Assembly: GCF_003148465.1 (NCBI RefSeq)
Contig: NZ_QGGI01000001.1
Span: 95,170 to 159,169 of the forward strand
From: Oceanotoga teriensis
GTDB lineage: Bacteria; Thermotogota; Thermotogae; Petrotogales; Petrotogaceae
Direction: 5' to 3'
DNA length: 64,000 bases
The notes under the pieces are model-generated. The model saw only the letters and a list, made by a program, of their open reading frames with translations, was not told where the DNA came from and did no database searches. Position 1 is the stretch's first letter. Every line of letters begins with the position of its first letter. A program made the translations under genes and the position numbers. Shown one piece after another: positions 2,270 to 64,000 of this stretch.

Positions 2270-3254
2270 CTATAAACCTCCCAATTTCATACAACAGATT
2301 ATTATCAAATTCATATTCCGAAAATTTATCATTAGATACAATATTATATTTTAATTTATTTGATATATATATTATAAGTTCATCTGCCGGTGAATTATAA
2401 TAAACTCTTTTTGAATTACTTAATTCTCTTAAAATATCTCTATCTTCATAATTTAAGATATATTCTATATTTTTATCAAAAACTATTATGCATGGAAAAA
2501 AAGCATATTCATTTATATATAAATTATCAATTAAATCTATTAATGTTTTAATTTTATTATTATTTTCAAATCTTATTATATTACTTCCATCTATAATAAT
2601 TCCTCTTGGATTTGAATTTATAAGTTTATAATGATAATACGAATAACTTTTTAAATGTATATTAATCATTTGTTTTTCATAATTATTTAAACTTTTATAT
2701 ATTTCTTTAATTTTAATATAATATGATTTTTTAGATAATAAAGGGTTTAATCCTAAAATTTCATCAAGAATATTTTGAATAAAAGGACTTTTAGAATCTA
2801 TTGGAAAATATGTCATCAAATAATATAGATCCCTATAATCTTTAAATTTTAATTTTTTTAAAATAATTTTTGAATCATAAAATTCTACATCATATTTTTT
2901 TAAACCTTCATTATATTTACCAGGCGGAAATTTATCTGGATATATTAAAAATTTTATATTCTGTAAGGTTTCATCTTTTAAATTATAATGTTTTTTTATA
3001 TCTTCAAATCTATTTTCGGTTGGTTTTTTTAAAACATGCATCACTAAAAATTGAAAATCATTTAAATGTTTTCTTGGTATTTTTCTTTCCGCATCATTTC
3101 CAAGAACTCTGTATATCCAAAACATTCTTCTATTATCAAGTTCTTTAGGCTTTTTTATATAAAAACTTGCAAGATTAAATATTTTTTTCATTCTTTTTAC
3201 ATGTTCATAATAATCTTTTTCATTCAAAACATTAATTATTCTTTGAATAGACAT
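2262..3254 (-). CDS. Hypothetical protein with C-terminal NYN / Zc3h12a-like ribonuclease domain
   Basis: 330 aa; the C-terminal ~110 aa (GIIIDGSNIIRF...CIIVFDKNIEY...YNSPADELIIYIS...NIVSNDKF) match the NYN/Zc3h12a PIN-like nuclease pattern (hhDGSN..., acidic D, ...SND.F). The N-terminal ~200 aa are not recognised. Confidence 0.45.
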   Translation of the reverse strand: MSIQRIINVLNEKDYYEHVKRMKKIFNLASFYIKKPKELDNRRMFWIYRVLGNDAERKIPRKHLNDFQFLVMHVLKKPTENRFEDIKKHYNLKDETLQNIKFLIYPDKFPPGKYNEGLKKYDVEFYDSKIILKKLKFKDYRDLYYLMTYFPIDSKSPFIQNILDEILGLNPLLSKKSYYIKIKEIYKSLNNYEKQMINIHLKSYSYYHYKLINSNPRGIIIDGSNIIRFENNNKIKTLIDLIDNLYINEYAFFPCIIVFDKNIEYILNYEDRDILRELSNSKRVYYNSPADELIIYISNKLKYNIVSNDKFSEYEFDNNLLYEIGRFIDV

Positions 3255-4333
3255 TAACTATTCGCCCTTATCTCCATTATATTACCATCTTCTACAATTT
3301 CATCTTTTCCAGCAAGCCTACTTAATCCTCGTTTTCTAGCTTCTTCATCATTTCCAGCTACTATTAAATCTTCATATTTGATAACTTCAGCTTTTATAAA
3401 ACCTTTTTCTAAAGCAGAATGTATTGCTCCAGCAGCTTTTTTCATATTAGTCCCTTTTTTTATAGTCCAAGCTCTAACTTCATCTTTACCAACAGTAAAA
3501 TAAGAAATTAAACCTATATGATCATAAACTACCTTTGATAATCTTGATATACCTGGTCTTTCTATATTGAGCTCTTCCATAAACATTTTTCTTTCATCTT
3601 CATTAAGTTCTACAAGATCAGATTCTATTTTTCCAGATATGTCTATATAAGCAAAATTATTGTCTTTACAAGTAGATATTAATTCTTCTTTTTGAGAGTA
3701 ATCATCAGAATCATGTTGATTTTCATCAATATTCACAACAGCTATTATTGGTTTTAAAGTAAATAAAGACAATGAACTTATTAATTTTTTTTCTTCTTCA
3801 TTTAATTCATAGTTACTTGCAAATTTTTCTTCCATTAAAAGATTCTTAATTCCTTCTAAAATTTCATTTTCTTTTATCTCATCTTTAGATGCTTTATTTT
3901 TCTTTATTGAAATTTCAAGTCTTGCCAACCTATTCTCAACAACTTCTATATCTCTTATTATAAGTTCTGCAATTAAAGTATTTAATTGTTTTAATGGAGT
4001 TTCATTATTATCTGGATATGGAACTTCATCATTTTCAAAAGCTCTTATTACAAGTATCATAGAATCAACATTTTGAATCATTTGTAATATTCTACTTTTT
4101 TCTTTTTGATCTGAAGAAGAATCAAAACTTGGTATATCAACAAAATCAAGTTCAGCATACGTAGTTTTTTTGGGTTGATATATTTCTGAAAGTTTTTCTA
4201 TTCTTTCATCTCTTATAAAAGCTCTTTTTTCTTCTGAGTTAACTTTATAAGATCCATCATATGGTGTATCTGTTAATAAAGAAAAAATAGTTGTTTTTCC
4301 ACTCATTGGTAATCCAAAAATTCCTATTTTCAT
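3254..4333 (-). CDS. ychF: Ribosome-binding ATPase YchF (Obg-like GTPase family, with TGS domain)
   Basis: 359 aa; Walker A GLPMSGKTT, and a C-terminal TGS-like segment RAWTIKKGTNMKKAAGAIHSALEKGFIKAEV. Confidence 0.9.
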   Translation of the reverse strand: MKIGIFGLPMSGKTTIFSLLTDTPYDGSYKVNSEEKRAFIRDERIEKLSEIYQPKKTTYAELDFVDIPSFDSSSDQKEKSRILQMIQNVDSMILVIRAFENDEVPYPDNNETPLKQLNTLIAELIIRDIEVVENRLARLEISIKKNKASKDEIKENEILEGIKNLLMEEKFASNYELNEEEKKLISSLSLFTLKPIIAVVNIDENQHDSDDYSQKEELISTCKDNNFAYIDISGKIESDLVELNEDERKMFMEELNIERPGISRLSKVVYDHIGLISYFTVGKDEVRAWTIKKGTNMKKAAGAIHSALEKGFIKAEVIKYEDLIVAGNDEEARKRGLSRLAGKDEIVEDGNIMEIRANS

Positions 4334-54182: not shown

Positions 54183-56108
54183 TTAAATATCTAATTCCTT
54201 AATTTTATATGCATTTTCTTCTATAAAAGTTCTTCTTAAACTTGGATCATCTCCCATTAATATTTCAATAGCTTCATTAGCCATCATAAGATCTTCTATT
54301 TTAATTTTTAACATTTTTCTTTGCTCTCTATCCATAGTTGTATCCCATAATTGGTCTGGATTCATTTCACCAAGCCCTTTATATCTTTGTAATTTATATT
54401 TTTTATCCAAATATTCTTTTTTCTTTTGTTCAAGCTCTTCATCTGTATATAAATAAAAAGACTCTTTACCAACTTCATATTTATAAAGAGGTGGTTGAGC
54501 TATATATACATGACCTTCTTCAATTAATTCTCTCATATATCTGTAAAAAAATGTCAATATTAAAGTTCTTATATGTGCACCATCTACATCGGCATCTGTC
54601 ATTATTATTATCTTACCATATCTTAATTTTGATATATCAAATTCTTCCCCTATGCCTGTACCTAGAGCAGTTGTAATATTCAATATTTGTTCATTTTTTA
54701 AAAGTTTTATCATATCTTTTTTTTCTGCATTTAATATTTTACCTCTTAAAGGCAAAATAGCCTGATAATTTCTATGTCTAGCTTGTTTAGCATTACCACC
54801 TGCTGAATCTCCTTCTACTATAAATATTTCCGATTCATTCAAATCTCTTGAAATACAATCAGCAAGTTTTCCAGGTAATGTTGAATTTTCAAATATTGAT
54901 TTTCTCTTAACAGAATCTCTAGCTTTTTTTGCTGCAATTCTTCTTCTTTGAGCAACTTTAACTCTTTCAATTATAGCCTTAGTTTCTTTAATATGACTAT
55001 CAAAATATATAGTCAAAAACTCATTCATTATATTATTAACAGATTCTCTGGCAAGTTTAGAACCCAATTTTCCTTTTGTCTGACCTTCAAAAATAGGATT
55101 AGCCATTTTAACATGTAAAATAGCAATCATACCCTCTCTTACATCTTCACCAGTAAAATTTTCATCTTTTTCTTTTAGTATATTATGTTTTTTAGCATAT
55201 TCATTTATAAGTCTTGTAAGAGCTGTTTTAAAACCAACTTCATGTTCTCCACCATCTATAGTTCTTATATTATTAACAAAAGATATTATAGTGTTTTCAT
55301 CTGAATTAGTATAACCAAGCTCAAGATCTAACTGAAGCTCTGGTTCACCTTTTTTATATAAATAAGATCCTGTTATAGATATAGAGTCTGTCAAAAGTTG
55401 TTTTTTTCTTTTTTTCATATAATAATCTAAGAATTGTTTAAGTCCACCACTAAAATGAAATTTTTCTTTTTTACCTTTTTTATTGTCCACAAAATTAATA
55501 ACTAAATTAGGATTTAAAAAAGCTATTTCTTTAAGTCTATTTTCTATTGAAATTGATTCAACTGAAATATCTTCATCTTCAAATATTTCAGTATCTGGTT
55601 TAAATCTTATATATGTTCCAGACTTATCAGATTTATCAATTATCTTAACAGGTTCATCAGGTACCCCTCTCTGATATCTTTGATAATAAACATCTCCATC
55701 TTTAAAAACTTTCACTTCAAAAAATTCACTTAAAGCATTTACAACTGAAGCTCCAACTCCATGAAGACCTCCAGAAACTTTATATGCATTTTTATCAAAC
55801 TTACCCCCTGCATGTAATACAGTCATAACTACTTCTAAAGTACTCTTTTTCTCAGTTGGATGCATATCAACTGGAATTCCCCTACCATTATCAAGTACTT
55901 CAACTGTATCATCAGCATTTAAAATAACACTGAGTTCGGTACAATAACCATTTATATGTTCATCGACTCCATTATCAACTATTTCATAAACCATATGATT
56001 TAATCCGGCTTTTGAAGTTGATCCAATATACATACCTGGTCTCATTCTTACAGGTTCAAGCCCTTTTAAAACTTTAATTTGATTACCTGTATAAGATTTC
56101 TCAATCAT
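54183..56108 (-). CDS. gyrB: DNA gyrase subunit B
   Basis: 641 aa; a GHKL ATPase (GLHHMVYEIVDN, GLHGVGASVVNA), a TOPRIM (EGDSAGG) and the QRYKGLGEM tail. Confidence 0.95.
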   Translation of the reverse strand: MIEKSYTGNQIKVLKGLEPVRMRPGMYIGSTSKAGLNHMVYEIVDNGVDEHINGYCTELSVILNADDTVEVLDNGRGIPVDMHPTEKKSTLEVVMTVLHAGGKFDKNAYKVSGGLHGVGASVVNALSEFFEVKVFKDGDVYYQRYQRGVPDEPVKIIDKSDKSGTYIRFKPDTEIFEDEDISVESISIENRLKEIAFLNPNLVINFVDNKKGKKEKFHFSGGLKQFLDYYMKKRKKQLLTDSISITGSYLYKKGEPELQLDLELGYTNSDENTIISFVNNIRTIDGGEHEVGFKTALTRLINEYAKKHNILKEKDENFTGEDVREGMIAILHVKMANPIFEGQTKGKLGSKLARESVNNIMNEFLTIYFDSHIKETKAIIERVKVAQRRRIAAKKARDSVKRKSIFENSTLPGKLADCISRDLNESEIFIVEGDSAGGNAKQARHRNYQAILPLRGKILNAEKKDMIKLLKNEQILNITTALGTGIGEEFDISKLRYGKIIIMTDADVDGAHIRTLILTFFYRYMRELIEEGHVYIAQPPLYKYEVGKESFYLYTDEELEQKKKEYLDKKYKLQRYKGLGEMNPDQLWDTTMDREQRKMLKIKIEDLMMANEAIEILMGDDPSLRRTFIEENAYKIKELDI

Positions 56109-56421
56109 TGGTACACCTCCGTATTACTTTTATTTCTTTGACTACTACTTCATTGAAATAAGAGTTTATCTTATCTATAACCTGTTTTCTCAAAAAAAGC
56201 ATTTCCTGCATTACAATATTATCTTGGCAGGAAATAATCAGTATTTTATCTCTTGGGTAATACTCAACAGGCTCTGTATAAATATTGAGCTTATCAGTAA
56301 AAAGTTCATTCCAATTTTTCTTTATTATAGAAATATTATAAACTTTTTTTATTACATTATCTTTTTTTGACATTTTTTTTAAAATGTCTCCGATAAAATC
56401 CAATATTAAATACCCTCCCAA
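56101..56421 (-). CDS. DUF721 family protein (gyrB-upstream small protein)
   Basis: 106 aa; position immediately upstream of gyrB (overlapping by 8 nt) and size typical of DUF721. A weak call. Confidence 0.5.
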   Translation of the reverse strand: MGGYLILDFIGDILKKMSKKDNVIKKVYNISIIKKNWNELFTDKLNIYTEPVEYYPRDKILIISCQDNIVMQEMLFLRKQVIDKINSYFNEVVVKEIKVIRRCTND

Positions 56422-57233
56422 TTGGTTGAATCATTTAAAATAAATTCTTTCCAATTATCCATAAGAGTTTCCGTAACTAAACCAGGAGCTGCGAATGTAA
56501 AATCAGGAAAAATTCTTCTAACCGGTACAACTCCCATTGAAGTATGGCTTAAAAAGACTTCTTCTGCTGAAAGTAATTCCCATATTTCAACATTTTGTTT
56601 TTCTTCAACTTCCATTGAAAGATTATTAGCAAGACTTAAAACATTATCTCTTGTTATACCTGGTAAAACTCCTGAAGATATATGTGGAGTAATCAATACA
56701 TTACCACTTACATAAAAAATATTTGAAAAAGTACACTCTGTAACATAACCATATTCATTTAATATAATTGATTCATAATAATAATCATATTTTTTATGTA
56801 CATATTTTATAAAACCATTCAAAGGAGATTTCACATAATATGGGATAACTGGATTAAATGGTTTACGTTCTCTGGCAATATTTATAACTATTCCATCTTC
56901 AAATACTTGATTATCTTCTATCAATTCTTCAACAAAAAAATAAAATGTTTTATTCTTAGTTGTTTCAGGAGTAATATACATTCTAAATCTAAACTCTTCA
57001 AAATTGTGTATAGTTAAAGCTTGATTAGTAACTTCAAGTAATTTATCAAATGAAGGCATATCAAGACCCATAAAGTCTGCTGATTTTTTCATTCGTTTAT
57101 AATGTTTTTTTAATGCAAATGGAATCTTTTTATAAGTTCTAAAAACTTCATATACAGTATAACCACTCATAAACCCCATATCATCTGCGTTTATCAACGG
57201 ATACTCTACCCATTCTTTACCATTATAAAACAT
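56406..57233 (-). CDS. Class IV aminotransferase (branched-chain/D-amino-acid aminotransferase or aminodeoxychorismate lyase family)
   Basis: 275 aa; fold-type IV PLP enzyme pattern (GYTVYEVFRTYKK, ECTFSNIFYV, GVLPGITR). Confidence 0.7.
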   Translation of the reverse strand: MFYNGKEWVEYPLINADDMGFMSGYTVYEVFRTYKKIPFALKKHYKRMKKSADFMGLDMPSFDKLLEVTNQALTIHNFEEFRFRMYITPETTKNKTFYFFVEELIEDNQVFEDGIVINIARERKPFNPVIPYYVKSPLNGFIKYVHKKYDYYYESIILNEYGYVTECTFSNIFYVSGNVLITPHISSGVLPGITRDNVLSLANNLSMEVEEKQNVEIWELLSAEEVFLSHTSMGVVPVRRIFPDFTFAAPGLVTETLMDNWKEFILNDSTNWEGI

Positions 57234-58533
57234 AAGAACTCACTCCTTCATCTGAAATATCTTGTATTTTAACCCTGTAAAATTTATTTTTTACAGGATT
57301 TATATTTTTAAAATCACATTTATGATGAATATAATATTCATCATACCCATAAATATAGTTATCATCAATTTTTTCAGAAAGAATAGTAACTTCTTTTCCA
57401 ATAAGTTCTTTTCTATAATCTTCTGATATATTTTTACTATTCAAATTAAGAGTTTCAATTCTATCTTTTTTTATATTACCAAGTACCTGATTTTCCATTT
57501 TAGATGCTTTAGTACCTGGTCTCGCCGAAAATCTAAAACCATGAACTTTTAAAATTTTCATGTCTTTTATGGAATTTAAAAGTTCTTGAAAATCTTCATC
57601 TTCCTCATATGGAAATCCAACAATTATATCGCTTGTAATAGAAAAAAACTTATCTCTTTCTCTAAATAATTCAATAGCCTCAATTATTTTATTTTTGTCA
57701 TACTTTCTTCCCATAAGATTTAATATTTTATTGGAGAAGTGTTGTATTGAGAGATGTACATGTTTTTCAAATATTTTAGAATTAAAAATAATTTCAACCA
57801 TTTTTTTATCTACATATTCTGGATACATAGAAGTCAATCTTATTCTAATATCATCTTCACCAAAATTTTCTTCTATCTTTTCTAAAAGTTCTGTTAAAGT
57901 TTCTGCATTGTCAAATCCAAATTGGTTTAAATTTATTCCGGTAAGAACTAATTCTTTATATCCAAGATCTATATAATTTGATATGGCTTTTAAAACTTTA
58001 TTTATAGGAAGTGATCTTATCGAAGTTCCACGAGAAAATATTATTCTGCAATAAGAACATGCATTCAAACAACCTTCTTCAATGGGTATAAATATCCTTG
58101 TTCTATCATCAAAAGACTTTTCAGGAGTTATTATCTTATCTTGATTTTTTAACCAATAAGATTTATTTAGAATAACTCCTGAATCATTTATATATTTATC
58201 TATAAATTTTTTTTCAAGATTTCCTAAAACAAGATCTGCTCCTATATCTTTAAGTTTTTCTGCATCGGTATGAACATAACAACCCACTGCAATAACTTTA
58301 ACATAATTATTTTTTCTTTTAATTCTTCTTATTAGTTGTCTTATTTTCCTTTCTGCCTCAGAAGTAACTGTACATGTATTAATAACATAAATATCATTTT
58401 TTCCGTTTTTTTCATCAAAAGTTATATTGTAACCTATACAGTTCAACTTATCCGCCATAGCTTGCGTTTCAGCTTGATTAAGTTTACAACCAAAAGTAAT
58501 CATAGAAACATTTTTACTCATCTTCTTCGCCAA
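57223..58533 (-). CDS. mtaB: MiaB-like tRNA methylthiotransferase (likely MtaB)
   Basis: 436 aa; an N-terminal UPF0004 cluster (FGCKLNQAE...INTCTVT), radical SAM CLNACSYC, and a C-terminal TRAM-like region. Confidence 0.8.
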   Translation of the reverse strand: MAKKMSKNVSMITFGCKLNQAETQAMADKLNCIGYNITFDEKNGKNDIYVINTCTVTSEAERKIRQLIRRIKRKNNYVKVIAVGCYVHTDAEKLKDIGADLVLGNLEKKFIDKYINDSGVILNKSYWLKNQDKIITPEKSFDDRTRIFIPIEEGCLNACSYCRIIFSRGTSIRSLPINKVLKAISNYIDLGYKELVLTGINLNQFGFDNAETLTELLEKIEENFGEDDIRIRLTSMYPEYVDKKMVEIIFNSKIFEKHVHLSIQHFSNKILNLMGRKYDKNKIIEAIELFRERDKFFSITSDIIVGFPYEEDEDFQELLNSIKDMKILKVHGFRFSARPGTKASKMENQVLGNIKKDRIETLNLNSKNISEDYRKELIGKEVTILSEKIDDNYIYGYDEYYIHHKCDFKNINPVKNKFYRVKIQDISDEGVSSYVL

Positions 58534-58975
58534 TCTCTCCTCTTGCTGCTTTACTCAAAAGACCTATTCTTCTTATAATACCTACAAGTTTATCATCATG
58601 ATCAACAACAGGAATTATTTTTAATTTATTTTTTATTATTACATCGGCAACATGTAAAACAGTATCATCAATATATACTTTAAATGGTTTATCGCTCATA
58701 AAATCAGATACTGGTTTATCAAGTATTTTGGATAATCCTTTAAAAAATTGATGACTATCAGGTATAAATGCTGAGCTTTCCATTAAACTCAAATATCCCG
58801 GTAAAGAAGCACTTATAACTCCACTTTCACTTAAATATCCTACTAATTTAAAATCTCCATTTATAACAGGCAATGCAGATAATCCATGTCTCTGACAAAT
58901 TTTTATAAATCTTTCTATATTTTCATCTTCCATAATCGAAGTTAAATCTCTTTGCATTATATCTTTAGCTTTCAT
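58514..58975 (-). CDS. CBS domain pair protein
   Basis: 153 aa; two CBS repeats (DIMQRDLTSI...ALPVINGDFKLVGYLS and VSDFMSDKPFKVYIDDTVLHVADVIIKNKLKIIPVVDHDDKLVGII). Confidence 0.7.
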   Translation of the reverse strand: MKAKDIMQRDLTSIMEDENIERFIKICQRHGLSALPVINGDFKLVGYLSESGVISASLPGYLSLMESSAFIPDSHQFFKGLSKILDKPVSDFMSDKPFKVYIDDTVLHVADVIIKNKLKIIPVVDHDDKLVGIIRRIGLLSKAARGEIGEEDE

Positions 58976-58986
58976 TCAGAACACCT

Positions 58987-59949
58987 CTATCCAATTCTCT
59001 CAATTGAAAATTTTGTCTTAGATCTCTCAATTTCTTCTTCAGTTCCAAGAATTTTTGCTATATAATTAGTTGAAGACATTGCAGCAGCCATACCATATTT
59101 TGCCGCTTCAAGATAATCAAACCCATTATTAATTATATAATAGACTATTCCAGACATAAAAGCATCACCTGTTCCAAAAAGATGTGATCTATCTATATCT
59201 TCTGTTGCAGTAAAAAGCCAAGCTCCATCTTCAGTCACAACTATATCACCAACAACATGATAACTCATAACTACCAACCTTGCTCCCGCTTTTATTATTT
59301 CTTTTCCAGTTTTTATATAATCTTCAGGAGTTTCAAGATTATTACCCAAAATTCTGCTACTCTTTCTCAAATCTGGTCTAACTATCATAGGACAATTTTC
59401 TCTTATAGCTTCATCAAAATGAGGTCCAACTGCTTCCATATAAGTTGTTTTACCTTGTTTTTTAGCATAAGAAAAAAGTTCTGAATAAAAAGATATAGGT
59501 ATATCAGGCGGAATACTTCCAGAAATTAAAACATGATCAACAAGATTCAAAGCACTTTTATATCTTTTCAAAAAATGTTTTAAATCTTCATCATGAATAA
59601 ATGGACCCATAGAATTTATTTCTGAAATTTTATTTTGAACAGGATCTATAATTTCTATATTCTCTCTTGTTTCTTCAGTACAATAAATAAAATTAGTCGT
59701 AATATTTTTTATATTGGACATTTTTGTTTGAATAACATTTCCTATAAAACCTCCAAGAAACCCCATATTTATAGAGGTTACACCCAAATCTGAAGTCATG
59801 AGAGAAACATTAATTCCTTTTCCTCCAGGCTCCATATTAGAATTAGATGGATTATTTATTCTAAAAAGATTTCCACTTTCAAAATTTTCAATCACAAATT
59901 CTCTATCCAGAGATGGGTTAAGTGTTACACTAAGCAAATTATATTCCAT
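58987..59949 (-). CDS. PfkB-family carbohydrate kinase (1-phosphofructokinase/tagatose-6-P kinase-like)
   Basis: 320 aa; GGKGINVS and GAGDAFMSG (the second pfkB signature). Confidence 0.75.
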   Translation of the reverse strand: MEYNLLSVTLNPSLDREFVIENFESGNLFRINNPSNSNMEPGGKGINVSLMTSDLGVTSINMGFLGGFIGNVIQTKMSNIKNITTNFIYCTEETRENIEIIDPVQNKISEINSMGPFIHDEDLKHFLKRYKSALNLVDHVLISGSIPPDIPISFYSELFSYAKKQGKTTYMEAVGPHFDEAIRENCPMIVRPDLRKSSRILGNNLETPEDYIKTGKEIIKAGARLVVMSYHVVGDIVVTEDGAWLFTATEDIDRSHLFGTGDAFMSGIVYYIINNGFDYLEAAKYGMAAAMSSTNYIAKILGTEEEIERSKTKFSIERIG

Positions 59950-60032: not shown

Positions 60033-60072
60033 ATAAAAAAAGACATCCTCAATTTATATCAAAGGATGTCTT
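60033..60072 (-). terminator. Rho-independent terminator of the radical-SAM gene
   Basis: Minus-strand hairpin AAGACATCCT-loop-AGGATGTCTT followed by a T7 run (A7 on plus at 60034-60040). Confidence 0.55.
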
Positions 60073-60088
60073 CATATCATAAATATTA

Positions 60089-61534
60089 TCAAGCTTTTTT
60101 ATCAAGAGCTAGTTTTTCTTCATTATTTTCATATCTTCTCATTCTTGTTTCATAATTATATATACCTCTCTTAGAAGGCCATTTTTCAGCATATCCTTCT
60201 TCATACCATAATTTATCTGCATAGACTTTCCAATCTGCAGCTAATTGATCTAATTCAGGAGCTAACTCATTTATAATTCTTTCACTTCCTGGATGCTGTG
60301 GTATCGCATTAAATTTCTTAACCATAGCTCTATAAACCTTTGGATTATCTATAATTGGACAAGGTCTAAATAAGTTTTCAGAATAAGGTATTGTTCTCTT
60401 ATAAGCTTCAAAGAATGGTGAACTTAAAATCTCTACTATCGATTTTTCTCTTATATTATCAACTGCAAATTGCTGGAATATACATGGTTCTGCATATCCT
60501 TTTGCATTTATATGCAAATATTTTGATCCCGCAGCAAGACAACCGTGAGATAAGAATCCATGATTCCAAAAATCAGCAACAAATGAGAATTTTCCACCTA
60601 ATCTAAGTTCTTCAGTTTTTCTAAACCTTTCTAATCTTTGTTCTGCAGTTGGAACTAATTCCATGGTTGCATCGGCACCAACTGGCATGAATTGAAATAC
60701 CCAAGCATAAGAAACTCCACTTTCTTTAAGGTAATCCCAGAAGGTATCATCCATAATCATTTCATGGTTCTTTCTTGTAGCTGTTATTGAAGAACCAAAA
60801 ATAACGCCATTTTCTCTCATTAATTTCCAAGCATTTTGAACTTGCTTATAAATACCTTTACCTCTTCTCCAATCTGTCATAGCTTCATCGCCTTCTACAG
60901 AAATAGCAAAAGTAGCATTACCAAGCTCTGCAAGTCTCTTAGCAGAATCTTCATTTATCATTGTAGCATTTGTATAAACCATAAAATATGAATCTTGGAA
61001 TTCCTCCAAAATATCATAAAAATAAGGATAAACAAAAGGTTCTCCACCAGTTATTATGAAGAAATATATTCCTAAATCATTAAATTGTCTTATTACACTG
61101 AATACTTCTTCTTTAGATAATTGATATTTATGACCATAAAGAGCTGCATAACATCCAACACATCTCAAATTACATGCATAAGTAGGAGAAATTATAGCAA
61201 GTTTAGGTAAAACTATTTTTAATTCATGCATTTTTTCTTGTCTAACTTTTTCACCAACTGCAAATTCATTAATTATCAAATTATTAATAACTTTTTCAAC
61301 CACTTTAGGATTTGATCTATTAAATAATTCTACCCAATTAACAAGCATTGGATCATGTCTATCTGCACCTTCAGCTAAATGTCTTAATCCAGATTTAGCT
61401 GGTTCTTTAGCTAACTTCGTTAAAGTCCATAAAAGCTTTGCAAACTGATCAATATCTGCTTTTCTTACAACATTTGAAACCAGTTTGGCAGCTTGTTTCA
61501 TCATCATAGATTTCATTGAATCCATAATTCCCAT
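60089..61534 (-). CDS. Large radical SAM protein with C-terminal SPASM/twitch-like Cys motifs (possible Tes/Mss-type lipid-modifying enzyme)
   Basis: GGAGGTG then ATG (MGIMDSMKS). About 481 aa; a ~110-aa N-terminal extension, then CNLRCVGCYA (Cx3Cx2C), GGEP, and C-terminal cysteines (HGCLAAG...EPCIFQQ...RPCPIIDNP). Gly/Ala/Arg/Trp-rich compared with its neighbours. Confidence 0.7.
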   Translation of the reverse strand: MGIMDSMKSMMMKQAAKLVSNVVRKADIDQFAKLLWTLTKLAKEPAKSGLRHLAEGADRHDPMLVNWVELFNRSNPKVVEKVINNLIINEFAVGEKVRQEKMHELKIVLPKLAIISPTYACNLRCVGCYAALYGHKYQLSKEEVFSVIRQFNDLGIYFFIITGGEPFVYPYFYDILEEFQDSYFMVYTNATMINEDSAKRLAELGNATFAISVEGDEAMTDWRRGKGIYKQVQNAWKLMRENGVIFGSSITATRKNHEMIMDDTFWDYLKESGVSYAWVFQFMPVGADATMELVPTAEQRLERFRKTEELRLGGKFSFVADFWNHGFLSHGCLAAGSKYLHINAKGYAEPCIFQQFAVDNIREKSIVEILSSPFFEAYKRTIPYSENLFRPCPIIDNPKVYRAMVKKFNAIPQHPGSERIINELAPELDQLAADWKVYADKLWYEEGYAEKWPSKRGIYNYETRMRRYENNEEKLALDKKA

Positions 61535-61555
61535 AAAAACACCTCCACCCAATAT

Positions 61556-62146
61556 TTATACACTTAATTTCATTAAAATATCTTTAAATTCTTCTTTAAA
61601 TTTTTCTTGTGGTACATTAACTCCAACAGCTTTATACATAGTAAGACCATCGAACATGGCATGAATCATCAAAGCTTTTGTTTTTGAATTAACTATCCCT
61701 TCAAGTTTTGAAAGCATTTTATTATAATAATTAGAAAAAATTTCAGTTAATTGTTTTATCATTTCATTATCATGATACGAATTAATTAGTATTTCAAAGA
61801 GTCTCATTAGTTCATCAGAAGCAAATTCAGAATGTAATGAAAAATACATCTCAGAAATAAGTTCTGCTTTATCTTCAAGTGTGTTTTTTTCTTCATATAG
61901 CTTTGATTCAACAGTATTTTCAAATTTTTTTACTAAATCTCCAAAAGCAAAAATTATAAGAGAATTTTTGTTCTTGAAATAATTATAAAGAGAACCTTTA
62001 GATAAAGCAGCTTTTTTAGCAACATCATCCATTGTGAAATTATTAAGACCTTTTTCTACAATAACTTCCAATGCAGTTTCTGCTATAAACTGTTTTTTTT
62101 CAAATTTAGTAATTTTTTTTGATGTTGTACTCAAAGCTTTTTTCAC
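61556..62146 (-). CDS. TetR/AcrR family transcriptional regulator
   Basis: 196 aa; an N-terminal HTH FTMDDVAKKAALSKGSLYNYFKNK; directly upstream of the radical-SAM gene on the same strand. Confidence 0.8.
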   Translation of the reverse strand: MKKALSTTSKKITKFEKKQFIAETALEVIVEKGLNNFTMDDVAKKAALSKGSLYNYFKNKNSLIIFAFGDLVKKFENTVESKLYEEKNTLEDKAELISEMYFSLHSEFASDELMRLFEILINSYHDNEMIKQLTEIFSNYYNKMLSKLEGIVNSKTKALMIHAMFDGLTMYKAVGVNVPQEKFKEEFKDILMKLSV

Positions 62147-62158
62147 CTCTTTTATTTT

Positions 62159-62190
62159 CTGACTGAACAGTCAGTCATAATAATTATGAC
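62159..62190. promoter_or_regulatory. Two abutting perfect palindromes (putative TetR operator) upstream of the tetR/radical-SAM operon
   Basis: CTGACTG-aa-CAGTCAG at 62159-62174 and GTCATAAT-AATTATGAC at 62174-62190, 12-25 nt upstream of the tetR start. Confidence 0.45.
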
Positions 62191-62471
62191 ACCAGACAAA
62201 AAAATAGTCAAATACGACAATTTAACTCTAATTTTAAAGAGTTTATTTCTATTTTTCCAAAAGCCTTAATTATAGCTAAAGAAAACTATAAAAAACAGAA
62301 AACGTACAAAAGTTTAGTTGTAATATAAAAGTATTTAATTAGTTTCATTAAAGAAACTATTGTTATCATTTTTTTACTTTATAAAAAAATTAAAATTAAA
62401 ATTCCATAAACACCTTCACAAATATAACTATGATATAATTATTATGAATTATATTATTGGAGGTTAAAACA

Positions 62472-63695
62472 TTGTATTCTATTATGGTAAGAATAAATGA
62501 AATAGCTTTAAAAAATCGTAATAAAGGTATTTTTATGAATATTTTAAAAAACAATATTGAAAAAAAAGTTGGAAAAGATTTTATTTTTGAAAGGAATAAT
62601 AATCGTATATATTTACATCCAAAAAACGATGGAATTATATTTGAAAATTATTTAGAATCTTTAAATGAAGTTTTTGGAATATATTCTGTATCTAAAGTTC
62701 ATAGATGCAATAATAATTATGATGAAATATTAGAAAATGTTTCAAAAGAATTAAATTTTATTTTAAAAAATTCAGATATAAAAACTTTTAAAATAGAAAC
62801 TAAGAGGATAGATAAAAATTTTAAAATAGAAAGTATAGATATGTCTAAAAAAATAGGTGAAGATATTTTAAAATCTTATTCTTTAGACGTGGATGTACAC
62901 AATCCAGATGTAAAAGTTTTTGTCGAAATAAGGTGTGAAGGAACATATATTTATGCTAATAATTACAAATTGAATAGCGGATTACCAGTAGGTTCATCTT
63001 CAAAAGGATCTTTATTATTATCAGGTGGTATAGATAGTCCTGTTGCTGGCACTATGATGTTAAAACGAGGAATGTCTTTAAATTGTATAAATTTTATGAG
63101 TCCACCTTATACAGGACCAAAATCAACAGAAAAAATTATAAAACTTGCTCAAAGATTGAGTTTATACAATATCAATCCTTTAGATCTATATATGATTCCT
63201 TTAACAAAAATACAACTGTTATTCAAAGATAAAAAATATTCAAAATTTTCCATAATCTTACAAAGAAGATCTATGATGAGAATTGCAAATAAAATATCGG
63301 ATCTATCTGAAACTAAGGTTATTATAACAGGTGAAAGTCTTGGACAAGTTGCATCTCAAACAGTAGAAAACTTGAATAGCATAGACAAAGAATCAAAAAA
63401 ACTTATATTAAGACCATTAATAGGTTTTGATAAAGAAGAAACAATAAAATTATCTAAAGCTTTTAATTATTATGATATTTCCACATTACCTTATGAAGAT
63501 AGTTGTACAGTTTTTTTACCCGATAGGCCTGCAACAAAATCTAAATTTGAAGTTTTAAAAAACATTGAATCAGAAATTTATGAATTAAATGAATTAGAAG
63601 ATGAAGTTATAAATTTATCAAAAAAATTGAGAATAATCAATACAAAAGTAATTGAATTAGAAAAAATCGAAAAAATAAAAGGAGGACTCTTATGA
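62472..63695 (+). CDS. thiI: tRNA 4-thiouridine(8) synthase ThiI (THUMP + PP-loop; no rhodanese domain)
   Basis: The track ORF starts at 62457; TTG 62472 or ATG 62484 after GGAGG. A PP-loop LLSGGIDSPVAG and a THUMP region. Confidence 0.85.
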   Translation: MYSIMVRINEIALKNRNKGIFMNILKNNIEKKVGKDFIFERNNNRIYLHPKNDGIIFENYLESLNEVFGIYSVSKVHRCNNNYDEILENVSKELNFILKNSDIKTFKIETKRIDKNFKIESIDMSKKIGEDILKSYSLDVDVHNPDVKVFVEIRCEGTYIYANNYKLNSGLPVGSSSKGSLLLSGGIDSPVAGTMMLKRGMSLNCINFMSPPYTGPKSTEKIIKLAQRLSLYNINPLDLYMIPLTKIQLLFKDKKYSKFSIILQRRSMMRIANKISDLSETKVIITGESLGQVASQTVENLNSIDKESKKLILRPLIGFDKEETIKLSKAFNYYDISTLPYEDSCTVFLPDRPATKSKFEVLKNIESEIYELNELEDEVINLSKKLRIINTKVIELEKIEKIKGGLL

Positions 63696-64000
63696 AAAGA
63701 TTCTTCAACAATATAGCTGATTTTATTTTTGGTATATGGTATTATATAGGATTATTTGGAATAATATATATTTATGGTAGCTGTGTGCTAATAAAAGCAT
63801 ATTTTATGAGAAAATCAAAGGGAGATGAAATAACAGATAAATATATAAGAAAAGTGGTTGGTAAATTTGGTAGAGGTACTTATAATGTAATAAGGACTCC
63901 TGTAGAGATTATTAATAAAGAAAAAATACCACAAAATGATAATTATGTAATTGTATCAAATCATCAAAGTTATTTTGATATTCCTTTAATACTTGGATTT
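63695..64000 (+). CDS. plsC: 1-acyl-sn-glycerol-3-phosphate acyltransferase-like (PlsC family), 3' partial
   Basis: 102 aa visible; an N-terminal TM and the acyltransferase HxxxxD motif VSNHQSYFDIP. Its ATG overlaps the thiI stop (ATGA). Confidence 0.6.

Follow-up and report, generated by a model that had tools for sequence, protein, structure and literature searches.

Organisation of the tetR-mss unit

The stretch of DNA analysed in this work, referred to as the window, is 64 kb of DNA from Oceanotoga (Thermotogota), and our subject is a two-gene unit on its minus strand in which a gene for a TetR-family regulator (tetR) is followed by a gene for a radical SAM protein. The latter protein is 100% identical to the one listed by NCBI as 'radical SAM protein [Oceanotoga sp. 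DSM 15011]'. As argued below from comparative sequence analysis, the radical SAM gene is an ortholog of mss, which codes for the synthase of membrane-spanning lipids (Mss), and the TetR protein would control both genes through an operator that is conserved across genera. In the direction of transcription, the unit comprises a promoter, the predicted operator, tetR, mss and an intrinsic terminator, and its features are as follows.

62183..62211, minus strand: promoter of tetR-mss; -35 box TTGACT, 17-nt spacer, TG-extended -10 box CATAAT
62174..62190, no strand assigned: second palindrome, perfect (8+1+8), overlapping the -10 hexamer
62159..62177, no strand assigned: predicted operator (first palindrome), conserved motif from the comparison of Thermotogota
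61556..62146, minus strand: tetR, gene for a FadR-like TetR-family repressor (Pfam TetR_N; FadR is the best match)
60089..61534, minus strand: mss, gene for a radical SAM enzyme of 481 amino acids with a twitch-like auxiliary-cluster domain (67% identity to Mss of Thermotoga maritima)
60035..60073, minus strand: intrinsic terminator of tetR-mss, from folding

The original prediction for this DNA had described a two-gene minus-strand operon, tetR and then the radical SAM gene, and this description was borne out: the two genes lie on the same strand, the gap of 21 nt between them contains the sequence GGAGGTG, and the terminator follows at 60035-60073. The terminator has a 12-bp stem followed by a run of seven U residues and a loop of more than 8 nt, with a free energy of -16.8 kcal/mol and a z-score of -4.3, and none of 200 shuffled sequences folded equally well. 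At the other end of the unit, the sigma-70-like promoter was the top promoter-like match of the region (10/12, with the TG), and an equivalent -10 box stands ahead of the operator in the other Thermotogota loci.

The start codons of both genes deserve a comment. The open reading frame of mss as called mechanically (60089..61552) begins at a TTG; the ATG at 61534 sits behind the ribosome-binding site GGAGGTG and gives 481 amino acids, as in the NCBI protein. This ATG is probably the true start of mss, and the mechanical start at TTG 61552 is probably wrong. For tetR, the GTG at 62146, which the NCBI model uses, gives 196 amino acids and the TTG at 62134 gives 192. The GTG falls within the ribosome-binding site GAGGTG of tetR, the TTG fits the N-termini of the orthologs better, and TTG 62134 is more likely to be the start.

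Identity of the radical SAM enzyme

The Oceanotoga protein aligned with AGL49750.1 of T. maritima at 67% identity and 83% positives with 0 gaps over 475 residues (705 bits, E 0.0), which lies inside the homology criterion used by the authors who described Mss (E <= 1e-50 and identity >= 30%; PMC13159169). The T. maritima ortholog is 482 amino acids long and is deposited under the accessions AAD35906.1 and AGL49750.1. In T. maritima, Mss has been given as AGL49750 and Ger as AGL49404 (bioRxiv 10.64898/2026.06.23.733905). Under locus tags, Mss is Tmari_0825, whose anaerobic expression in E. coli led to C32/C33 diabolic acids (Sahonero-Canavesi et al., Sci Adv 2022, PMC13159169), and the ether-forming Ger is Tmari_0479 (PMC13159169). 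Since the two locus tags and the two accessions are both 346 apart, the mapping of Tmari_0825 to AGL49750.1 is confirmed. The protein is conserved at 58-84% identity throughout Thermotogota, and Mss, described in 2022, was reported in all Thermotogales genomes examined.

The gene neighbourhood is conserved as well, the order gyrB-dciA-aminotransferase IV-mtaB-like-CBS-pfkB-mss being common to Oceanotoga, T. maritima, Petrotoga, Tepiditoga and the closest relative, an uncultured one (L093). Because of the gap-free identity of 67% to T. maritima Mss and of this shared neighbourhood, we concluded from sequence and synteny that the radical SAM gene is an mss ortholog and not merely a member of the family. 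The Oceanotoga enzyme is an ordinary, formerly unannotated ortholog of a known enzyme, and the guess of the original prediction, a membrane-spanning-lipid synthase, held good.

The block of genes for GyrB, DciA, a class IV aminotransferase, a MiaB/MtaB-like radical SAM protein, a CBS protein and a PfkB kinase occupies 54183-59949 of the window on the minus strand, and it is collinear with the T. maritima locus (L001 1-3947) despite deep divergence within the phylum. In metagenome-assembled genomes (MAGs) of Actinomycetota, mss lies beside infC-rpmI-rplT-pheST instead; pheST also adjoins mss in T. maritima.

Pfam analysis of Mss gave Radical_SAM at 80 bits and SPASM at 28.2 bits (cut-off 21.5). 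No Pfam or NCBIfam model names Mss, and all 53 NCBIfam matches, those to peptide or heme maturases included, were far below their cut-offs. The CX3CX2C motif of radical SAM enzymes is formed by C121, C125 and C128 (in the numbering of the 481-residue protein), and about 120 residues precede it, in agreement with the predicted N-terminal extension of about 110 residues; in the AlphaFold2 model (predicted local distance difference test, pLDDT, 90.4), the first 105 of them fold into a domain of five helices. In an alignment of 54 family members, these three cysteines and 64 further columns were invariant. The latter include C332, C351 and C392, the extra C-terminal cysteines that had been predicted, and the invariant cysteines number six. 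The proposal of a SPASM-like C-terminus stood in part: the Pfam model passes its cut-off, but the seven-cysteine motif CX9-15GX4C...CX2CX5CX3C...C was not found, Mss having only C332-X13-G-X4-C351 and C392, that is, three of the seven SPASM cysteines. The auxiliary region of Mss is expected to be twitch-like, with at most one auxiliary cluster and not the full SPASM set.

These domains bring in a second reading of the enzyme, namely a SPASM/twitch maturase of a ribosomally synthesised and post-translationally modified peptide (RiPP), with the TetR protein as the regulator of its cluster. It is true that StsB, NirJ2, mycofactocin MftC, SkfB, SuiB and anSME were the best matches in the curated libraries and the PDB, and that Foldseek ranked SuiB, anSME and SkfB first for the Mss model. 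The maturase matches, however, lie far under the family cut-offs (75 bits against 265-650). The neighbourhood is a conserved housekeeping one in which neither a precursor peptide nor a protease or an exporter is encoded close by, and the protein shares 67% identity with an enzyme whose lipid-coupling activity has been demonstrated. We regard this reading as very improbable. Best homology to a peptide-maturase clade, which the original prediction had named as the outcome that would speak against it, was not found, and the best characterised homolog is Mss.

The original label 'Tes/Mss-type' also implied kinship with Tes, the archaeal tetraether synthase (GDGT-MAS). Tes is a radical SAM enzyme of similar length (500-526 amino acids against about 480) with a presumably analogous tail-to-tail coupling, and GDGT-MAS (PDB 7tol) does turn up when the PDB is searched with the Mss family profile. 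Its match, however, covers the radical SAM core only (profile positions 112-229; E 7.6e-4, 21 bits) and ranks 14th, behind SkfB (4e-18), SuiB, BlsE, viperins, MoaA and PqqE, and Foldseek places GDGT-MAS at rank 38 with a TM (template modelling) score of 0.38. The conserved auxiliary cysteines of Mss number only three, and GDGT-MAS is said, from the 2022 work of Lloyd et al., to carry several extra Fe-S clusters. Full-length homology to archaeal Tes (MJ0619, Maeo_0574 and TK2145) was not found by these comparisons with GDGT-MAS. Membership of the Tes family is refuted, that an enzyme of this kind is at hand is scarcely credible, and the label is reduced to 'Mss'. No Tes homologs were found in Thermotogales (PMC13159169). 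Mss and Tes appear to be convergent solutions within the radical SAM superfamily, as the Mss authors likewise concluded (PMC13159169).

It could also be supposed that the protein belongs to the Mss family but that its product in moderately thermophilic Petrotogaceae is another coupled lipid (in chain length or coupling position), or that it is expressed only under stress. In line with this, the two characterised Mss enzymes differ in regiochemistry (omega versus omega-1), some organisms with an Mss homolog showed no membrane-spanning lipids (PMC13159169), and no reports on Oceanotoga lipids were found in the literature searched. The 67% identity without indels is nevertheless to the omega-1-coupling enzyme of T. 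maritima, and we consider this supposition quite improbable.

Some further observations concern the family at large. The accession WP_129545148.1 for the Mss of T. ethanolicus was not confirmed, as no Thermoanaerobacter was found among the 120 listed matches of a search with a Bacillota member, among which Moorella and Thermosediminibacterales were present. Mss-family homologs with 46-49% identity at about 93% coverage were seen in E. coli, Klebsiella, Salmonella, Edwardsiella, Photobacterium and Sodalis, with enteric loci at NZ_CP117576.1 2254-3633 (L092) and NZ_CP077819.1 86642-88003. They are plasmid-borne in Escherichia albertii and K. pneumoniae; in the former the plasmid is a conjugative one of the IncF type, and on it the gene stands alone beside repB, without TetR. 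In T. maritima, a second radical SAM/SPASM gene of 323 amino acids with a full SPASM match (L001 4948-5919, plus strand) lies ahead of the mss promoter and operator. Its best sub-threshold NCBIfam matches were AhbD, NirJ2 and the mycofactocin maturase. As clustering of Gms genes with mss has been reported, its product could be one more enzyme that modifies lipids.

With regard to composition, the original prediction had described the protein as rich in W, R, A and G. The contents of W (2.1%), A (8.5%) and, by a small margin, R (5.2%) exceed those of the neighbours, but G (5.4%) is not enriched; the G+C content of mss is 31.5%, against 26.5% for the window. An acyltransferase gene, listed here for context only, had also been predicted nearby.

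63692..64000, leaving the window, plus strand: 5' part of a PlsC-type acyltransferase gene (NHQSYFD motif, Pfam PF01553)

This gene is divergent from tetR-mss and lies beyond thiI. It carries the NHQSxxD motif (PF01553 at E 2e-6), its distance from tetR is about 1.5 kb, and a PlsC-type neighbour is also found in Petrotoga, Tepiditoga and the closest relative. The long intergenic region between tetR and thiI was considered as a possible place for a riboswitch or another known RNA; this is rejected, as Rfam gave nothing there at E <= 1 except a chance snoRNA match.

The TetR regulator and its predicted operator

The TetR protein matched PF00440 (TetR_N) with 51.2 bits (cut-off 24), and its AlphaFold2 model (pLDDT 85) consists of nine helices, with the helix-turn-helix (HTH) and the all-helical ligand domain of the TetR family. 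Its best PDB sequence matches by phmmer were the FadR proteins of B. subtilis and B. halodurans (E ~1e-11), with an alignment that reaches residue 153 and thus extends into the ligand domain. The top Foldseek match of the model was FadR (3whb), and the complex of FadR with stearoyl-CoA (3whc) was among the top matches. In the recognition helix, the DNA-contacting Gly/Tyr/Tyr of FadR align with G-S-L-Y-N-Y of the Oceanotoga protein, so that G-x-x-Y-x-Y is conserved. On present evidence the TetR protein probably works like FadR but is not a member of the FadR family. A covariation of the residue equivalent to Gly42 of FadR with the G of the half-site was also considered; it fails in Thermosipho and Pseudothermotoga, and no claim is made of it.

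Four of the Thermotogota loci compared here came from a contig scan and close relatives were added one by one, and the wider survey comprised 85 mss loci. With one exception, every Thermotogota locus examined has a tetR gene adjacent to mss and in the same orientation. It precedes mss in the Petrotogaceae (Oceanotoga, L093, Petrotoga, Tepiditoga and Marinitoga) and follows it in Thermotoga, Thermosipho, Pseudothermotoga, Mesotoga and two MAGs. The Oceanotoga TetR protein belongs to an orthogroup that occurs in Petrotogaceae only. Identities are 43-53% within each of the two TetR groups of Thermotogota and about 22% between them. In the wider survey, TetR was the commonest non-housekeeping neighbour of mss (14 of 85 loci).

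Two palindromes sharing one base in front of tetR had been proposed as TetR operators. Both are perfect, with coordinates and letters just as given in the original prediction, and the comparison set them apart, the first being conserved across genera and the second not; the first alone stands out above chance. The first palindrome, CTGACTGaaCAGTCAG at 62159-62174 (CTGACTG-aa-CAGTCAG), is part of a predicted operator that starts 5 nt downstream of the -10 box and lies over the expected transcription start; the 18-bp consensus of the phylum is matched in Oceanotoga by TGACTGAACAGTCAGTCA at 62160-62177. The shared motif, T[GT]AC[CT]RA[CA][CT]RGT[CA]AGT[CA]A, follows directly on the -10 box of whichever gene leads the mss/tetR pair and is present in 10 of the 11 Thermotogota loci with a neighbouring TetR, the eleventh, from a MAG (L008), having a degenerate copy only. 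The motif in the other genera reads as follows.

Petrotoga: TGACTGACCAGTCAGTCA
Marinitoga, two copies: TGACTAACCAGTCAGTCA
Tepiditoga: TGACTAAACGGTCAGTCA
Thermosipho: TGACCGAACGGTCAGTAA
Pseudothermotoga: TGACCGACCAGTCAGTAA
T. maritima: TTACCGACCGGTAAGTAA
Mesotoga: TTACCAACCGGTAAGTAA

In the closest relative, the 14-bp core TGACTGTTCAGTCA is exactly in the register of the first palindrome. The motif stays 5' of whichever gene leads the pair, tetR in Petrotogaceae or mss in Thermotoga, Thermosipho, Pseudothermotoga and Mesotoga. A consensus built from the other genera matched the window only at the first palindrome, and the consensus matches each Thermotogota locus only at its promoter. In about 610 kb of mss loci from outside Thermotogota, four consensus sites were found, two of which (L079 and L084) are immediately upstream of a tetR gene that precedes mss. 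The palindromes at these two TetR-then-mss pairs are TTACCTACCGGTAGGTAA (L079) and ATGACTGAATATTCATTCAT (L084), the latter matching the FadR operator at 18 of 20 positions. In an uncultured, Petrotogaceae-like relative (L094), which is without TetR, the motif is absent too.

The site also resembles a known operator. On the crystallised operator of B. halodurans FadR, ATGAATGAATACTCATTCAT, two dimers sit on inverted repeats offset by 4 bp, and each monomer reads ATGA(A/G)T. The Oceanotoga site CTGACTGAACAGTCAGTCAT matches this operator at 15 of 20 positions, a score reached by one of 5000 random 80-nt windows (empirical p ~2e-4 per 80-nt window). Its layout, [TGAC][TGAC]..[GTCA][GTCA], is the tandem arrangement of 4-bp half-sites found with FadR, and because of this layout two palindrome registers coexist in it.

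Could the enzyme be Mss and yet the TetR protein and the palindrome not control it, the repressor having other targets or the element being a feature of the promoter or leader? The identity of only about 22% between the two TetR groups and the lack of a TetR at most mss loci of other phyla would be compatible with this. Against it, the motif keeps to the 5' end of the pair despite the swapped gene order, its presence tracks that of TetR (L094 has neither), independent TetR-then-mss pairs in other phyla (L079 and L084) carry palindromes at the same position, and Rfam gave no family match in the region. We consider such a lack of control unlikely, although it retains some weight. The promoter-specific conservation, the TetR-linked sites in other phyla and the joint absence in L094 argue for the conserved element as the operator of TetR and for autoregulation of the operon. 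The description of the enzyme gene as 'TetR-regulated' in the original prediction thus gains comparative support as far as the first palindrome is concerned.

The second palindrome, GTCATAATAATTATGAC at 62174-62190, is a perfect 8+1+8 repeat (GTCATAAT-a-ATTATGAC). It is absent from Petrotoga, Tepiditoga, Marinitoga and the closest relative. Perfect palindromes with 8-nt arms are common in the AT-rich window (25 in 64 kb). In view of this number, the overlap with the -10 hexamer and the lack of conservation, the second palindrome is probably fortuitous and not an operator.

Several of the related loci show features of their own. The two copies of TGACTAACCAGTCAGTCA in Marinitoga (L089) are identical and lie upstream of tetR at 3230-3247 and 3370-3387, 140 bp apart, which suggests possible looping or a second promoter. 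A GC-rich intergenic block of the same locus (2774-2882, minus strand) is a thiamine pyrophosphate (TPP) riboswitch (67 bits) that serves upstream transporter genes and is unrelated to mss. In L094, whose Mss is 77% identical, the tetR gene and the operator are both lost (2584-3000), and mss follows dnaK behind a promoter with a TG-extended TATAAT; this locus is a natural 'constitutive' variant that would be useful for comparison. At thermophilic Bacillota-type mss loci, the place of TetR is taken by a protein of about 230 amino acids with a weak N-terminal winged-HTH signal, encoded upstream of mss in L037, L038, L040, L045, L046, L060, L077 and L082 and downstream in L050. Its Pfam matches (Fe_dep_repress, TrmB and GntR) are all below cut-off; a role as another regulator of mss, unrelated to TetR, is possible.

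Proposed regulation and comparison with known systems

The best explanation of the locus as a whole is an autoregulated tetR-mss operon that codes for an Mss enzyme and a FadR-like, lipid-responsive repressor, and we hold this explanation to be probable. Following the chemistry of the T. maritima and T. ethanolicus enzymes, Mss would abstract a tail hydrogen from a fatty acyl chain bound in a glycerolipid and couple this tail to a second one; in T. maritima, two C16 chains are joined at their omega-1 carbons in this way to give a diabolic-acid membrane-spanning lipid. The coupling step probably involves the single auxiliary cluster of three cysteines. The FadR-like TetR protein would bind the TGAC-repeat palindrome over the transcription start, perhaps with two dimers on inverted repeats shifted by 4 bp, the arrangement seen with Bacillus FadR, and would thereby shut off both tetR and mss. 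Its release would be brought about by a lipid-derived ligand, for example a long-chain acyl-CoA or a fatty acid in free or esterified form, and the membrane-spanning fraction of the lipids would then track lipid status or growth phase. Such a lipid-responsive model fits the reported growth-phase induction of mss, which is growth-phase regulated in the species studied (PMC13159169).

A number of points weigh against this explanation. The binding of TetR, the repression and the transcription start are predicted from sequence features. Mss activity is known from heterologous expression of two enzymes only, and no lipid data for Oceanotoga or any other of the Petrotogaceae were found in the literature searched. 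The TetR protein scores 48.9 bits against the 200-bit cut-off of the NCBIfam FadR model (NF053878), short of the equivalog level; the Foldseek E-values for FadR and for the unrelated TetR proteins EbrR and RcdA are close; and the Thermotogaceae-type operators (TTACCG...) match the FadR box at only 11 of 20 positions. Because of these three points the assignment of a ligand is weak, and the identity of the ligand is the weakest step of the mechanism. Thermotogota, moreover, may lack a large acyl-CoA pool. Finally, most mss loci outside Thermotogota are without TetR, and one relative (L094) has lost it, which indicates that the regulator is dispensable.

A broader proposal is that of a lipid-sensing switch, made up of the FadR-like repressor with its TGAC-repeat operator, which sets how far bilayer lipid is converted into membrane-spanning monolayer lipid, is conserved across Thermotogota, recurs in Atribacterota, Bacillota and other phyla, and has survived both a swap of gene order and a deep divergence of the repressor. 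We put it forward tentatively, with somewhat more doubt than confidence. If it is true, this switch would be the first regulatory mechanism described for the synthesis of bacterial membrane-spanning lipids, and it would offer a way into the question of how these lipids, and by extension proxy lipids of the branched glycerol dialkyl glycerol tetraether (brGDGT) type, depend on growth phase and temperature.

Since Mss has been known since 2022, the enzyme assignment by itself adds little. It corrects the generic annotation 'radical SAM protein', and it leads one to expect diabolic-acid lipids in a genus of moderate thermophiles without such reports. The conserved FadR-like repressor with its operator is apparently a modest but new observation, as no paper tying TetR to mss was found in the literature searched, including under TM0823 and Tmari_0824. 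The regulatory module is the more useful part, offering a defined operator of 18 bp together with a candidate repressor and a class of ligands that can be tested, for a pathway whose regulation is uncharacterised in that literature. The abundance of membrane-spanning lipids shifts with growth phase and temperature, and they are presumed precursors of palaeoclimate proxy lipids; a switch of mss would be of interest to lipid biochemists and organic geochemists.

Compared with known systems, the Oceanotoga enzyme is closest to T. maritima Mss, with which it shares its length, the CX3CX2C motif, the three auxiliary cysteines, the genomic neighbourhood and the phylum, whereas it comes from another family (Petrotogaceae) and a moderately thermophilic genus. 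The order of the pair differs, tetR coming first in Oceanotoga and mss first in T. maritima, and the Oceanotoga locus lacks the second radical SAM/SPASM gene that T. maritima has just upstream of mss. The likeness to Tes / GDGT-MAS (PDB 7tol/7tom) does not go beyond the radical SAM core; the two enzymes differ in auxiliary-cluster content and in their N- and C-terminal domains, and Tes acts on isoprenoid ether lipids whereas Mss acts on acyl ester lipids. The SPASM/twitch enzymes SkfB (6efn), SuiB (5v1q) and anSME (4k36) are the closest solved structures and sequences, sharing with Mss the motif start CX13GX4C and a SPASM match above the Pfam cut-off. Unlike these enzymes, Mss has an N-terminal 105-residue helical domain that is not a peptide-recognition domain (RiPP recognition element, RRE), and its substrate is a lipid and not a peptide. 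For the regulator, the nearest known system is Bacillus FadR (YsiA), a TetR-family repressor that is released by acyl-CoA and has the operator ATGAATGAATACTCATTCAT. FadR is the best match of the Oceanotoga TetR protein in both sequence and fold, and autoregulation is attributed to both, here as a prediction; the target in Oceanotoga, however, would be the gene of a lipid-modifying radical SAM enzyme and not the genes of beta-oxidation.

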